Origin: a virus
Taxonomy: Duplodnaviria > Caudoviricetes
Direction: 5' to 3' (one strand)
IMG/VR virus record: IMGVR_UViG_3300020042_007467
Coordinates: 1 to 29,281 of that record
DNA: 29,281 nt
Each line of letters opens with the position of its first letter. The stretch's first letter is position 1. Positions 14,146 to 28,696 of this stretch are shown piece by piece. The position numbers and the translations under genes were made by a program. The notes under the pieces are model-generated. The model saw nothing but the letters and a program-made list of their open reading frames with translations. It was not told the origin of the DNA and did not search any database.

Positions 14146-15948
14146 TTATCCCGCCGATGTTGTTGAAGTCATTTGTATTCCATGAAGAGTTACAGTAGTT
14201 GCTGTGCTTGAAGCAGAACCACCAGCCCAAACATAAACAGGAACCGAGTAAATACCTCCTGAAAGGGTAATGTTTGCGGTTGTTACGCTTGTTCGAGTGG
14301 TTGCACCGCTAGTTGCGGTAGCAAGAATTGCTGGAGCAACACTAAAGCGATTTACTGGAAAACTCATTATTCCGTTACCAGTAATGCTACCACTAACAAT
14401 GGCTTGTGAGTAGGGGACGATTACGTTTGCGGTTGAACTCAGATCTCCTGAGCTTGATACTGACACAACTCCTGGTCCACCTAGTGTTCCAATGTTAGTT
14501 ATTTCTGAGGTGGTTATGCTGGCAGATAAAGCCGTTCCAGTTAGTGTATTAGCAGCATGAGTGTGGTTGCCAAGTGCAACAGTCGTGCCAGTTGTTCCTG
14601 TCGGAATGCGACCAATCGCAAAAGTTCCGCTAGTAACATCAGCAGTATCGTGAGTATGCCCAACTACTGAGATACCCGCTTCCGCAGCTGTCTGATTCTT
14701 CCACAAGCCAGAAGTAGAGTCATAAGCCATAACCTCGTTATCGGCAGGTGCTTCAATCAGAACATCGTGAAGTTCGCGGAACTCAAAACCATTCTGAGGC
14801 TTTACGAAGATCTCGCCGTTGTTGCTCTGCGCGCGAGTAACAACACCAATAAATACAAGGTGCGCGGGAGCCACAGGCTTATTAACTAAACCATAAATAA
14901 GGTTGCCAGCGGTTCCAAGCCACACAGGGTCGCCAGCAGTAGCAGTTGAAGTATCAAGCCCAGAAAGTAAACCTTCAGCAACCAACTTAACCTTAGCGTT
15001 AGTTGATCCACCCAACTCAAGCAAACCCAAAGTCTTAGAAGAAGTCGCTTCAGTAGCGTTAGAAGCCTTAGAAACAATCATGTTAGTTCCGTCAGCGGAA
15101 CTCACATAAACTGCTTGACCTTTAGCAATGGCCTCACCAAGTTTAACTTCGTGCTTAACCTGAGAAGTCCAGTTAGCGTAGTTATCAATCCAAGTTGTGT
15201 TGTAGTTTGTGCCATCAAGCTTGGCAAGGATTTGGCCAGCATCGCCACCAGTTGGAATGCCAACACCAGCAGGACCAGTCGCTCCTGTTGCACCAGTGGC
15301 ACCAGTAGCTCCAGTTGCTCCAGTCGCACCCACAAGGCTAGCAAGCCATTCAGCTTCAGTGCCAGTAAAACCTTCAAGTTGTGCAACCTGATAAGCGCTA
15401 AAACCGTTTGGACCTTGGCTACCAGTAGCACCAGTAGCACCTGTGTCACCCTTAGCACCAGTCGCACCAGTATCTCCCTTGGCACCCGGTATACCTTGGA
15501 TACCTTGGATACCCTGATCACCAGTTAAACCAGTATCACCTTTGACACCAGGGATACCCTGTATACCTTGAATACCCTGAATGCCTTGGTCGCCAGTATC
15601 GCCCTTAGCACCTGGTATGCCTTGAATACCCTGAATACCTTGATCGCCTTTAGCGCCCGGAGCCCCATCGGTTCCATTAGTTCCATTAGTTCCATTCGTT
15701 CCATTGGTTCCATTGGTTCCATTAGTGCCATCAGCACCCGGCAAACCTTGATCCCCAGCTGGGCCTTGAGGCCCCTGAGGACCTGCTGGACCCTGAGGAC
15801 CTGCTGGACCAACCTCACCAGAAGTGGAAGAGTCGGAACCCCCACCGCCACCAAAGGGCCGCTTATCAAGCCTCTTAATTTCTTTTTCAACCTTGTCGCC
15901 CCACTCCTGTGATTGCGCCGGAAGATTACTATCAGGAAAGATTATCAT
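14146..15948 (-). CDS. Collagen-like fibre protein with capsid-cement-like domain
   Basis: 600 aa. Long Gly-X-Y tract, SAYQVAQLEGFTGTEAEWLASL linker, GQILAK...YNTTW motif, cement-like segment (EAIAKGQAVYV...GDPVWL...FIGVV) and HTH fibre repeats. Confidence 0.85.
   Translation of the reverse strand: MIIFPDSNLPAQSQEWGDKVEKEIKRLDKRPFGGGGGSDSSTSGEVGPAGPQGPAGPQGPQGPAGDQGLPGADGTNGTNGTNGTNGTNGTNGTDGAPGAKGDQGIQGIQGIPGAKGDTGDQGIQGIQGIQGIPGVKGDTGLTGDQGIQGIQGIPGAKGDTGATGAKGDTGATGATGSQGPNGFSAYQVAQLEGFTGTEAEWLASLVGATGATGATGATGATGATGPAGVGIPTGGDAGQILAKLDGTNYNTTWIDNYANWTSQVKHEVKLGEAIAKGQAVYVSSADGTNMIVSKASNATEATSSKTLGLLELGGSTNAKVKLVAEGLLSGLDTSTATAGDPVWLGTAGNLIYGLVNKPVAPAHLVFIGVVTRAQSNNGEIFVKPQNGFEFRELHDVLIEAPADNEVMAYDSTSGLWKNQTAAEAGISVVGHTHDTADVTSGTFAIGRIPTGTTGTTVALGNHTHAANTLTGTALSASITTSEITNIGTLGGPGVVSVSSSGDLSSTANVIVPYSQAIVSGSITGNGIMSFPVNRFSVAPAILATATSGATTRTSVTTANITLSGGIYSVPVYVWAGGSASSTATTVTLHGIQMTSTTSAG
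15268..15819 (-). repeat. Gly-X-Y coding tandem repeats
   Basis: (GTN)n 9-bp repeats at about 15669-15726, three GDQGIQGIQGI..GxKGDTG blocks, and (GAT)n at about 15277-15330. Confidence 0.9.
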
Positions 15949-15954
15949 TCAACC

Positions 15955-15963
15955 ATTCTATCA
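15955..15963 (-). promoter_or_regulatory. Putative leaderless promoter (TG-A-TAGAAT-N6-ATG)
   Basis: Extended -10 lies 6 nt before ATG 15948; no SD. Confidence 0.7.
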
Positions 15964-15964
15964 T

Positions 15965-16043
15965 AAAAGTAAAGACCGCCCCGGAGAAAAAATCTCAACA
16001 GGGCGGTCTGTAACACACACAGCAGGAAAGGAGGTAACCTGCT
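15965..16043 (-). ncRNA. Candidate small RNA with anti-Shine-Dalgarno loop
   Basis: Predicted start 16043/16042 after TGTGGTATAAT. Hairpin AGCAGG-UUACCUCCUUU-CCUGCU, linker GUGUGUGUUAC, GC-rich hairpin AGACCGCCC...GGGCGGUCU, then UUACUUUU. No credible ORF. Confidence 0.7.
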
Positions 16044-16048
16044 CTAAT

Positions 16049-16059
16049 ATTATACCACA
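16049..16059 (-). promoter_or_regulatory. Extended -10 promoter TGTGGTATAAT (candidate sRNA promoter)
   Basis: Identical 11-mer at 18620-18610 and a one-base variant at 20092-20082; lies just downstream of the capsid terminator. Confidence 0.75.
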
Positions 16060-16061
16060 AC

Positions 16062-16096
16062 AATAAAGAAAACCCCCACCGAAGTGAGGGTTCTCT
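16062..16096 (-). terminator. Intrinsic terminator after major capsid gene
   Basis: AGAGAACCCUCAC-UUCG-GUGGGGGUUUUCU-UUAUU: cUUCGg tetraloop, 12 nt after the stop. Confidence 0.85.
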
Positions 16097-16108
16097 TTTG
16101 TGAAGCTA

Positions 16109-17209
16109 TTAGCTGCCAGCACCAGTCGATGCGATAGTTCCAGCAGGAACTAGGAAGCCACCAGTAGCAATGTGACGGATTCTCATCTCGAAGTCGTCAT
16201 TGTCGAAGCCACCCTCGCGAGCAGGAACTGCACCGCCACCAAGGTAGGTTCCGCCGTTAGCCTTAACACGAAGCTCAGGAGCCTCGTAGCCACGAAGGAA
16301 TCCAAGTGCAACACCTGGGTTTAGCGACTGGCTTGGAACTGGAATTAGGAACCAGTAAGCGCCAGCACCCGAGTTGATCTTCATGATCCAGTCGTTAACA
16401 ACGATCTCAACCTGTGAACCGATTGGGTTACCAGTGATAGTCTTTGTTACGATCGAACCAACAGTAGCCGAAGTTTCTACAGTCTGAACTGCAAGAATCT
16501 TGCGAGCGGTTAGCTCAAGTGAACGAGGAATAACCAAAGCGAAACGAGTTACAGGGCTAATCAAGCTACCGTTGAAGGTCTGTAGGTTAGCTGCCTGGAT
16601 AGCCTTCTCTAGGTTCTCTAGAGTTAGCGCACCGTTACCTGAGAACAGGTTTTGGTTAGTTCCGTTGAAGTTAGTGGTGTTTAGACCAGAGGTAGCAACA
16701 AGCTGCTTAGTAACTTCTTCATCTTCTTTTCCAGCTGCCTTCTGAGCAAGCTCAATAGGTAGACGCTCAAGAAGCGAAATGTTGCCATCGTTTACGATTG
16801 CTTCCCATGAGAAACGGATACGCTGACCGGCTTTCTTAACAGAAAGAGTCTTCTCCGTAACAGCAAACCAACCAGCAGTAGGGTATTCGTCATACTCTCC
16901 AACAGTTGGAAGCGATCCATCGCGGAACGTGTCACCCTGGTTGTTCTTGCCGTCATCATCATATGAAAGAGACATAAATGTTTGTGGGCGGAAGTCATCA
17001 AGAACTAGACGAGAAGCAAAACGGTCCCAAACTTTTGGCTGGACTGCGTAGTTCTCAAGAAGAATCTTGTTGATAGTTGGGGCAAGCTGAACTGGTAGGT
17101 CGCTCGTAGAGATACCTTCCTGAAGCTTAAGCTTGTCCATGCGGTCGCCGCGAAGGGCACCTTCGAGAAGCTTAGCAGCTTCTACTTGACGTGCGGTAAT
17201 GTTTTCCAT
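16109..17209 (-). CDS. Major capsid protein
   Basis: 366 aa. EGISTSDLP, LPTVGEYDEYP, KKAGQRIRFSWEAIVND and GGFDNDDFEMRIRH are Mu gpT-like capsid motifs; followed by a strong terminator. Confidence 0.92.
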   Translation of the reverse strand: MENITARQVEAAKLLEGALRGDRMDKLKLQEGISTSDLPVQLAPTINKILLENYAVQPKVWDRFASRLVLDDFRPQTFMSLSYDDDGKNNQGDTFRDGSLPTVGEYDEYPTAGWFAVTEKTLSVKKAGQRIRFSWEAIVNDGNISLLERLPIELAQKAAGKEDEEVTKQLVATSGLNTTNFNGTNQNLFSGNGALTLENLEKAIQAANLQTFNGSLISPVTRFALVIPRSLELTARKILAVQTVETSATVGSIVTKTITGNPIGSQVEIVVNDWIMKINSGAGAYWFLIPVPSQSLNPGVALGFLRGYEAPELRVKANGGTYLGGGAVPAREGGFDNDDFEMRIRHIATGGFLVPAGTIASTGAGS

Positions 17210-23286: not shown

Positions 23287-23314
23287 CGCCCTAGGTATGG
23301 CGTGAAACTACCTA
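23287..23314 (+). ncRNA. 28-nt pseudoknot element, copy 1
   Basis: CGCC-C-TAGGTA-T-GGCG-TGAAAC-TACCTA. Confidence 0.75.
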
Positions 23315-23692: not shown

Positions 23693-23720
23693 CCACCTAG
23701 GCAAGTGGCTAAACGGCCTA
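23693..23720 (+). ncRNA. 28-nt pseudoknot element, copy 2
   Basis: CCAC-C-TAGGCA-A-GTGG-CTAAAC-GGCCTA. Confidence 0.75.
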
Positions 23721-23752
23721 ACCACAATCACACACAAACAAAGGATAAAAGA

Positions 23753-24115
23753 ATGACTATTTCAATTCCAGAACCAATCACCACCATTCACCCGCCACGC
23801 CGTTACCGCTATTCAACGGAGTGGGAGCAACTAATCTACAGATCTGGCCATTGGTTCAGTAAGAGCGCTATGGGCTTTTCTGGATCGCGGATCCTGTGGG
23901 GAACGTTGCGCCCGATTGCCGGTGATAATTTCACATTCATTACTAGCGAGGAGCGCAATGGTGAACGCCGTTACTCGGTGCGCGAGTGGTATCCAAACGG
24001 CGTTTACACTCTGGGCGAATTCATGGAGCATCCAACCCGATCCGCAGCTTTGCGCGCACAAGCCAAATACCACAAAGAGGAGGAAGATTACGTCAAAAGC
24101 TTTGATAACAAATAA
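23753..24115 (+). CDS. Hypothetical early protein (120 aa)
   Basis: Start placed at ATG 23753 after AAAGGA; GHWFS...GSRI...FITSE...RRYSVR. Confidence 0.8.
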   Translation: MTISIPEPITTIHPPRRYRYSTEWEQLIYRSGHWFSKSAMGFSGSRILWGTLRPIAGDNFTFITSEERNGERRYSVREWYPNGVYTLGEFMEHPTRSAALRAQAKYHKEEEDYVKSFDNK

Positions 24116-24123
24116 ATAACAAA

Positions 24124-24151
24124 GCGCCTGGGTATGCGTTGAAACTACCCT
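24124..24151 (+). ncRNA. 28-nt pseudoknot element, copy 3
   Basis: GCGC-C-TGGGTA-T-GCGT-TGAAAC-TACCCT. Confidence 0.75.
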
Positions 24152-24447: not shown

Positions 24448-24475
24448 TACCCTGGCTATGGTGTAAAACTAGCCA
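24448..24475 (+). ncRNA. 28-nt pseudoknot element, copy 4
   Basis: TACC-C-TGGCTA-T-GGTG-TAAAAC-TAGCCA. Confidence 0.75.
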
Positions 24476-24505
24476 CACACACAAAACAATCTAAGGAGAT
24501 ACAAA

Positions 24506-24655
24506 ATGAAATACGGAATTCGATCGATCGCAGCTTTGCTCGGTTTGCTAGGTTTCACTAGCACGATTGGCGCGTTGCTCTCTGGCCATTCCCCGGTTGC
24601 TAGTTTTAGCCTGGTTTTGGTTGCGGGGATCACTCTCGTGGCAGCTCACGATTAG
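24506..24655 (+). CDS. Small membrane protein (49 aa, two hydrophobic segments)
   Basis: MKYGIRSIAALLGLLGFTSTIGALLSGHSPVASFSLVLVAGITLVAAHD after AAGGAGATACAAAATG; not in the ORF track. Confidence 0.8.
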   Translation: MKYGIRSIAALLGLLGFTSTIGALLSGHSPVASFSLVLVAGITLVAAHD

Positions 24656-25818: not shown

Positions 25819-25846
25819 TCACCTAAGCAAGTGTCAAAACTGCTTA
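25819..25846 (+). ncRNA. 28-nt pseudoknot element, copy 5
   Basis: TCAC-C-TAAGCA-A-GTGT-CAAAAC-TGCTTA. Confidence 0.7.
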
Positions 25847-25874
25847 CCACACACACAACTATAAGGAGATACAA

Positions 25875-26120
25875 ATGGCACACCTAGTAACACATTTAGT
25901 AATCACAGTAAGCCACACAACCGGGCAGGTTGCTTTTGACGGCGACGGCACGAGGGAATGGATTAGGCGCTTGTTTGATCCACAGACAACCACTTACGAT
26001 TATGATGAAGATCAAATGGTTGCAGTTTCATCGGAGATCGAACGAGCTGCGTTAGACAAGTTGATCGAATTGGGCATACTTGTAGACGGATTAGATTACG
26101 ACAATTGGCAGGAGAGATAA
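25875..26120 (+). CDS. Hypothetical early protein (81 aa)
   Basis: AAGGAGATACAAATG leader. Confidence 0.85.
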   Translation: MAHLVTHLVITVSHTTGQVAFDGDGTREWIRRLFDPQTTTYDYDEDQMVAVSSEIERAALDKLIELGILVDGLDYDNWQER

Positions 26121-28037: not shown

Positions 28038-28088
28038 TTTACATAGCACGAAAACATATTTGACCACACACTAACAAAGGAGATCTAA

Positions 28089-28696
28089 ATGACTACTAAA
28101 ATTCACCTAAATAAGAATGAGCTGCAAGCGGTTGCCTCAATGATAAATGTTACCGCGCCTAAGGATCACGTTACGGCTTTATCTATGGTTCAATTGACGG
28201 CTAATATTGACGGATCGCTTAGCCTGGTTGCTACTAATCGTATGGTGATCGGAGAGCAAACTTTTACGCCTCACTACCCGGTTGAGGTTGATGAACCGAT
28301 ACGATCTTGCTATCGCCTAACATTCTCAAAGCGTTCAAAGCCTCTAAGTTTGAGGGAACGATTATGATTTTTGAAGATCAAATTTCATTCTCTACTATTG
28401 GCAGCGCAACGATCACCGATAGTTTACCTAAGGATAAGTTTCCTGATGTGTCTGCCTATCTGCCTAGCGCAATAGATTTTGATATGATCAAGCCGTCTAC
28501 TGGGTTCAGTAGAGTGAACCTTGATCTGTTGGCACAAGTGTCTAAGTTGCGCGCGCCTAGTGATGATAGAACCGATAACCCGGTGTTTGATCTTTACACG
28601 CAAGAGATGACGGATACTGGTAAACCTAAACCGATTATTGTTACTCGTGCAGCTCGTTCACTTATGGCTGTTATTCAACCGATGTATGTAAAGTAG
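28089..28696 (+). pseudogene. Beta sliding-clamp-like protein split by a -1 frameshift
   Basis: LSLVATNRMVIG in the first ORF and KFPDVSAYLP...VMAVIQPM-like C-terminus (LMAVIQPM) in the second resemble DnaN motifs (LVATDxxRL, FPxxxxxIP, terminal MP). The second ORF has no SD and its frame opens at 28295. Confidence 0.55.

Follow-up and report, generated by a model that had tools for sequence, protein, structure and literature searches.

A 29,281-nt stretch of phage DNA (the window: a whole IMG/VR record, amounting to ~60% of the phage genome) contains, on its minus strand at 16043-15965, a self-contained unit. From its sequence it appears to be a real and conserved phage RNA element, apparently not described before, and the genomes bear a strong footprint of the action predicted for it. 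The unit probably specifies a trans-acting RNA of ~80 nt that masks AGGAG-led messages by pairing with them. What can be read from the sequences compared is a -10 box of its own, covarying stems, an invariant loop core, independence of the genes upstream, and a split in Shine–Dalgarno (SD) sequence between early and late genes.

Layout and conservation of the unit

The minus strand of the window carries the terminase, portal, protease, decoration, capsid, collagen-like fibre, head-tail and tail genes (PHROG assignments). From 22.9 kb on, the plus strand is occupied by short genes that gave no family hits, with one exception of unknown function; this arm is read here as the early arm. The major capsid protein gene (16109-17209, minus strand; PHROG 133/4523/1650) encodes a product with 40-44% identity to the closest cultured capsids (at most 44% to those of Micrococcales phages), which are mostly from phages of Arthrobacter, Clavibacter, Curtobacterium and Microbacterium. 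The RNA runs that contained window DNA came from lake water, and we infer that the host is a freshwater Micrococcales bacterium; a scan of GTDB returned 27 stretches, from which no host could be assigned. No tRNA or tmRNA was found in the window. Two overlapping plus-strand frames (28089-28367 and 28307-28696) look like a single gene broken by a frameshift or an assembly error.

The unit is flanked on one side by the head-operon terminator and on the other by a second extended -10 box, and every coordinate in the initial annotation, which had described a self-contained minus-strand unit here, proved to be correct. Reading along the minus strand, a predicted intrinsic terminator of the head operon (16065-16098), which insulates the unit from upstream, is followed by the predicted extended -10 promoter of the RNA (16049-16059). 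Hairpin 1 (16021-16043) comes next, with a 6-bp stem and an 11-nt pyrimidine loop (16037-16027) whose core, CUCCU (16029-16033), is the complement of AGGAG; then a G/U linker (16010-16020), complementary to CA tracts 5′ of the SD in some early leaders; and then the terminator-like hairpin 2 (15965-16009), comprising a bulged hairpin (16009-15973) and a U-rich tail (15972-15965). The second extended -10 box (15955-15963) ends six bases before the start of the collagen-like tail-fibre gene (14146-15948, minus strand; PHROG tail fibre/collagen hits), which is predicted to be leaderless. As had been noted initially, the promoter 11-mer (16059-16049) recurs ahead of the head genes: its single further exact copy lies at 18620-18610 on the minus strand, 5′ of the protease–decoration–capsid operon, and with two more copies carrying one mismatch there are four matches in total against 0.40 expected.

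The unit has a predicted fold of -34.5 kcal/mol (z -5.7), which was not equalled by any of 200 shuffles, and both the loop and the linker are unpaired in the structure prediction. The minus strand also folds better than the plus strand (-33.8 vs. -29.6). The RNA data consisted of assembled contigs from six runs, five of which were compared with the window. Contigs of near-identical phages cover the head operon and end at 16115-16221, which lends weak support, from contigs only, to the head-operon terminator; none spans 15750-16107, and an RNA of ~80 nt is not expected in such contigs.

To follow the unit in other genomes, 80 capsid relatives were fetched, of which 30 long records were read whole. 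The unit was present in 30 of the 31 records of the phage family, the exception being a record that ends just after the capsid gene. It stood 5′ of the collagen-type gene in all 28 records in which that gene was found, window included, and before another gene in two more distant records. A first pattern scan was too loose, returning ~2,200 stretches that were mostly chance matches. Among 167 hits to the start of the downstream gene, 144 (58 distinct) carried the strict pattern, 10 had variant stems and were identified by eye, and 13 were weak and represent a paralogous tail gene. The loop core CUCCU was invariant in the 58 distinct strict-pattern, gene-anchored units. A -10 hexamer preceded each of the 57 units that could be parsed, with a TG extension in 45, and the stem started 5-6 nt after it in 41. 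In some relatives inserted genes (RNR, nrdH and others) sit between the capsid gene and the unit, which retains its own -10 box. The slot between the capsid terminator and the RNA is an insertion hot spot for promoter-bearing genes, including RNR, nrdH and genes for secreted proteins (L003, L012, L019, L023, L038 and other records), several of which have AGGAG leaders.

When 44 of the 57 parsed units were aligned with MAFFT, two-sided changes were seen at 13 of the 19 consensus pairs, and in hairpin 1 both sides had changed at all six. The fixed parts are the loop core and the bulged core of hairpin 2; the stems, linker and apical loop vary, and G-U pairs assign the structured strand to minus. 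The initial annotation had proposed looking in relatives for a conserved loop and G/U linker with covarying stems. Conservation was confirmed for the loop core and covariation for the stems, but the linker, scored as a G/U run of at least 9, was present in only 29 of the 57 units and absent from the other 28. The unit has several features of a trans-acting base-pairing sRNA, namely a predicted promoter and terminator of its own, no conserved reading frame, a conserved structure and an exposed, conserved seed.

A model built from the alignment scored the window unit at 71 bits, its sole strong site there, and found units in the cultured phages CN1A (35 bits, E 4e-6) and Jojan60 (24 bits). In four other cultured phages (Amigo, Molivia, Musetta and PhillyPhilly), the same gap contains a promoter-like box as well as a hairpin whose loop includes CCUCC or CUCCU; these hairpins differ in shape, were not matched by the model, and are analogues or distant homologues. 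Amigo, CN1A and Musetta had been chosen as negative controls and proved to carry anti-SD units. Jojan60 (L512) is labelled as a Stenotrophomonas phage, and its capsid, gene order, leader signals and anti-SD unit resemble those of Micrococcales phages, so the host label may be worth checking. With Rfam 15, the whole window gave no match at the locus at E ≤ 1, and a 181-nt query at E ≤ 10 gave 21 matches that were all far below the gathering threshold, with no assignment to 6C, c4, GcvB, cuckoo/alpha-r14 or AbcR.

The SD split and predicted pairing with early leaders

If the loop masks AGGAG, genes that are needed while the RNA is present should lack that sequence. Among distinct leaders of the family, AGGAG was found in none of those for capsid (0/52), decoration (0/53), protease (0/51) and major tail protein (0/27), in one of 36 for portal and in five of 37 for the small terminase. 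Nearly all capsid, decoration, protease and major tail leaders do have an SD, either AGGA with A or U after it or GGAG with U or C before it; the capsid leader of the window has such a split SD (AAGGA, then A) and no AGGAG. The collagen gene (50 of 50 distinct family leaders) and the first head-tail gene (37 of 37) look leaderless, with a -10 box 5-12 nt before the start. The initial annotation had proposed that leaderless virion transcripts would escape the RNA, and the comparative data extend this proposal, in that escape by late genes appears to involve avoidance of AGGAG besides leaderless starts.

The split was also seen genome-wide. Using our own ORF caller and ORFs of at least 80 codons, AGGAG preceded 221 of 645 ORFs on the early strand and 52 of 897 on the late strand. 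Of the 29 records that had eight or more ORFs per side (two were left out), 28 showed a larger early than late share; the records are related and so not independent. The late-strand genes with AGGAG were largely RNR, nrdH, genome-end and accessory genes. In cultured phages, where counts cover fetched stretches of at most 50 kb and timing in Amigo was taken from strand, AGGAG was less frequent on late than on early genes in those with an anti-SD unit (CN1A, 3/30 vs. 14/34; Amigo, 7/34 vs. 14/34; Musetta, 5/24 vs. 22/59, not significant, p 0.20). In five related phages without a unit after the capsid gene, the late share was equal to or above the early one (LuckyBarnes, 11/25 vs. 6/32; Montesquieu, 13/25 vs. 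3/29; TripleJ, 12/27 vs. 9/41; WaterT, 6/27 vs. 12/56; Commonplace, 6/22 vs. 7/42). Commonplace has a weak candidate hairpin ahead of its protease gene. CMP1 and Yappy are possible counter-examples, as AGGAG is absent from their head modules (0/7 each) and no clear CUCCU unit follows the capsid gene in either.

Since SD sites are matched by any anti-SD sequence, complementarity by itself says little. For the window, the initial annotation had pointed to early leaders sharing a layout of CA tract, spacer and SD, and the four leaders that it named were recovered. The pattern CACACA-N2..11-AAGGA gave 10 overlapping matches at five places, all on the plus strand, against 0.15 expected, and none of 100 shuffles reached 10; the places are the reverse complement of the unit and the early leaders at 23729, 24476, 25848 and 28065. 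Summed over the two blocks, pairing was joint best, at -21.0 kcal/mol, for the plus-strand leaders at 24474-24498 (gene at 24506) and 25848-25868 (gene at 25875), both with a CA tract and AAGGAG, and was -19.9 kcal/mol for that at 28065-28082 (CA tract and AAAGGAG; gene at 28089). The leader at 23729-23745 (plus strand; CA tract and AAAGGA; gene at 23753) is a candidate target with a weak loop match (-5.6); it reads AAAGGA-U rather than AGGAG. Most early leaders of the window read AGGAG-A, with which the loop pairs with one mismatch 5′ of the core.

Across the window, the loop paired more strongly with early than with late starts (-9.1 vs. -4.7 kcal/mol; 19 vs. 20 starts; p 2e-5), and, with hairpin 1 kept intact, the two-block sums of 10 of the 19 early starts, but of none of the 16 late starts with a leader, ranked in the top 5% of random windows. 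Full co-folding with hairpin 1 forced open did not separate early from late (-7.0 vs. -5.3, p 0.17). The linker pairs with four window leaders at -11 to -12.8 kcal/mol and would have some 4-5 targets among the 19 early leaders; taken alone, it did not separate early from late starts (p 0.59). Matrices of cognate against foreign pairings across phages were not significant for either the loop (p 0.076) or the linker (p 0.28). Thus, of the two-block pairing with early leaders that had been proposed, the preference of the loop for early starts stood, but the G/U block occurs in half of the units, reaches few leaders and shows no cognate specificity. Early leaders had been expected initially to outscore shuffled controls; for the linker they did so only narrowly (14 of 300 shuffles).

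There are signs that loop and linker vary with the leaders of each phage, which suggests co-evolution of seed and target. CA-tract leaders made up 33% in records with a G/U tract and 15% in those without (12 vs. 12 records, p 0.003, no tree correction), and fewer AGGAGG leaders were found where the loop has U before the core (5 vs. 18 records, p 0.023, no tree correction). However, the G/U state tracks the backbone trees, with 4-5 changes, and among six independent pairs G/U and CA changed in the same direction in four and in opposite directions in none (median p 0.125, not significant); the link between G/U tract and CA tracts may therefore be inherited. Linker type does not track the early arm more closely than the virion arm: it follows the terminase, portal, tail and primase trees alike; only the capsid and protease trees are scrambled.

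A further hairpin is repeated at the head of early-gene cassettes in the window (23293-23313, 24130-24150, 24454-24474 and 25825-25845, plus strand, with a looser copy near 23700). Its stems change, its 11-nt loop is conserved and ends in AAAC, and it lies just 5′ of the CA tract and SD. In the 31 records it gave 26 hits on the early strand and eight on the late strand, and it is possibly a processing or 5′-protection site.

Proposed action of the RNA and alternative readings

We propose that the RNA would be transcribed from its head-operon-type promoter and would accumulate late in infection, the promoter being of the host type (extended -10) and the late timing assumed. Its CUCCU loop would form a kissing contact with the AGGAG ribosome-binding sites of early genes. 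In half of the family, pairing of the G/U tract with a CA enhancer just 5′ of the SD would be added across the 6-bp stem, with a 5-nt spacer in the best targets. Binding of the 30S subunit would be blocked and mRNA decay would probably be faster, such that early, replication and host messages led by AGGAG would be silenced while virion messages with a split SD or no leader would pass. Hairpin 2 likely terminates the RNA and protects it, and could be a binding site for a protein.

Other explanations of the unit were weighed against this trans-acting pairing. The loop could be a decoy for a protein that reads the anti-SD, for example a MazF-type nuclease that cleaves at UCCUU or a protein that binds the anti-SD, without pairing with any mRNA. 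UCCUU, the cleavage site of a mycobacterial MazF, lies within the loop of 48 of the 57 units, and hairpin 2 resembles a protein site; however, the nine units without UCCUU have all kept CUCCU, and both the exact avoidance of AGGAG by late genes and the G/U tract would go unexplained. Although the decoy idea also draws on the report that this MazF removes the anti-SD of 16S rRNA (PMC6101614), we consider it unlikely. An improbable reading, too, is that of a second terminator or an attenuator acting in cis, which would insulate or adjust the leaderless gene that follows, with the loop contacting a protein or the ribosome on its own RNA and the SD split reflecting a need for strong early initiation. 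In the family the unit is indeed tied to the downstream gene and not to the capsid gene, hairpin 2 is of a general terminator type, and some of the U-tracts are poor enough to make read-through possible. Nevertheless, the unit is served by its own -10 box, which follows a strong terminator; the next gene has a promoter of its own (50/50) and is a different gene in CN1A, Musetta and L046, and the SD split is missing from the five phages without a unit.

Pairing with AGGAG might instead have been selected for its effect on host mRNA, in shut-off or the silencing of defence genes and possibly early in infection, with the early genes of the phage being bystanders or translated beforehand. This would predict avoidance of AGGAG by late genes equally well, and would fit the weak cognate specificity for the phage's own leaders and the host-type promoter. 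It has a low probability in our judgement, given that the layout of CA tract, spacer and SD is found in the window at early leaders only, and that the loop flanks, like the G/U state, tend to suit the leaders of the phage that carries them. Finally, the unit looks like an early leader when read in reverse complement, and is then followed in a few relatives by a start codon, as would be seen if it were a decayed plus-strand leader. The initial annotation had named such a leader among the outcomes that would overturn its reading, and it is excluded by the covariation data, together with the minus-strand G-U pairs, promoter and terminator; conservation also extends out to CN1A with no conserved reading frame, and we attach almost no weight to decay or chance as the origin of the unit.

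Setting trans-acting masking in a wider frame, we tentatively suggest an SD code in which AGGAG marks early and host messages, a split SD or leaderless start marks virion messages, and an anti-SD RNA, which also has an enhancer-masking G/U tract and a protein-binding bulged hairpin, shuts off the AGGAG class and so turns ribosomes to virion synthesis; such a code might recur in unrelated phages and explain the start-associated SAS motifs of Cluster K. If so, a single RNA of 80 nt directed at the ribosome-binding signal would serve both as the early-to-late switch of the phage and in host shut-off, and its footprint would be seen in the SD choice of every core virion gene. Because comparable anti-SD hairpins are carried by cultured phages whose hosts are harmless, namely Amigo (Arthrobacter), Musetta and PhillyPhilly (Microbacterium foliorum) and Adephagia (M. 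smegmatis), the proposal is directly testable.

Related systems and wider occurrence of the hairpins

Anti-SD loops are known from the cuckoo/AbcR-type sRNAs. From these and from 6C the unit differs in having a single CUCCU loop and no C-runs or repeated modules, in being phage-encoded and in matching no Rfam family; the two stem-loops with C-run loops by which 6C is recognised were not found, the loop of the second hairpin being variable. With the 6C sRNA of Actinobacteria, as described in PMC6486639, it shares a pyrimidine-rich loop on a stable stem and predicted action on several targets, chaperone independence being a property of 6C. An anti-SD RNA that needs no chaperone would also be of practical use, as a repressor part in Actinobacteria. 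The G/U block recalls GcvB, in which a G/U-rich stretch is predicted to mask ACA-rich enhancers just 5′ of the SD in many mRNAs (PMC3879156). The likeness would be one of function, without homology; GcvB is longer, chromosomal, enterobacterial and Hfq-dependent (PMC4474525), whereas here the G/U tract is optional and stands beside an anti-SD loop.

Two phage systems are comparable in biological role. The T4 endoribonuclease RegB inactivates early mRNAs at a GGAG motif in the SD and spares late transcripts (PMC3014915), the same outcome as that envisaged here; RegB is an early protein nuclease aided by S1, whereas our candidate is predicted to be a base-pairing RNA from which late messages escape by SD sequence or leaderless start. 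The c4 RNA of P1 and P7 is a trans-acting antisense RNA with loops that pair around a ribosome-binding site of the same phage (PMC12197685). It acts on one antirepressor message in immunity, as set out in that account, unlike the unit, for which a whole SD class is the predicted target and no Rfam match was obtained. The unit belongs to none of RegB, GcvB, 6C and c4, and resembles them only in how it would work. Neither this RNA nor an anti-SD shut-off RNA of any phage turned up in our literature search. In three of the six supplement files of a survey of 10,000 viral candidate RNAs (PMC10690425) there was no match; the survey may list the RNA as an unnamed candidate.

A precedent for the SD split is in Cluster K mycobacteriophages, where 13-bp SAS motifs containing AGGAG are found at the starts of non-structural genes only, with one reverse copy per K1 genome; Pope et al. 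left open whether RNA or protein binds (PMC3203893). Confinement of AGGAG-type start motifs to non-structural genes is common to both systems. SAS differs in being a 13-bp repeat, and the model of the unit scores 16 bits or nothing, with no sequence homology seen. In Adephagia (stretch 44,000-59,646 examined), the lone reverse SAS (58682-58694, between genes 92 and 93) lies on the transcribed strand in the loop of a long predicted hairpin that comes after a terminator-like hairpin, making it a candidate for an anti-SAS RNA. An RNA of this kind would, if the proposal is true, answer what reads the SAS motifs.

Hairpin 2 has a wider distribution than the unit. Its core consists of a G-C pair, a U-led 2-nt bulge (15998-15997) and then G-C, A-U and G-Y pairs, and was present in every strong gene-anchored hit, the bulge being UU in 48, UA in four and UC in four of 56, with one 4-nt variant. 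In secondary structure only, it resembles the arginine sandwich motif of TAR and 7SK, described as a bulged pyrimidine two pairs below an A-U, with G-C flanks and a variable second bulge base (PMC6189040): the bulged U lies under G-C and A-U pairs, the second bulge base varies, and the pair below the bulge is here G-C. A U-bulged terminator hairpin was found in 103 viral stretches, and 48 of the 68 distinct stretches with enough flank had an anti-SD-like motif within 60 nt upstream (three had one downstream and one further upstream), as judged with a motif list picked after viewing the data. Many of these stretches belong to another phage group, in which the unit lies between the terminase and portal genes. 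The bulged terminator also follows 5S rRNA in four of 10 cellular loci checked (L497, L501, L504 and L509) and a tRNA in one phage (L450), and because it ends such units elsewhere, hairpin 2 is a wider 3′-end motif of stable RNAs and not specific to this family. It may mark an unrecognised class of terminator with a protein site.

In the unrelated phage group (L380, L386, L388, L390-L392, L401, L410, L414, L444 and others), a promoter, an anti-SD stretch and the same bulged terminator stand together between terminase and portal. A candidate second CUCCU-loop RNA, for which the one record examined gave no Rfam match, was seen beyond the fragment represented by the window, 5′ of the primase gene in a relative (L352, 13600-13780, plus strand; G016) and in 12 others. 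In it, the AAAC hairpin seen in the early cassettes leads into a fold that resembles a tRNA, with a T-loop and with an anti-SD loop in the place of the anticodon arm.
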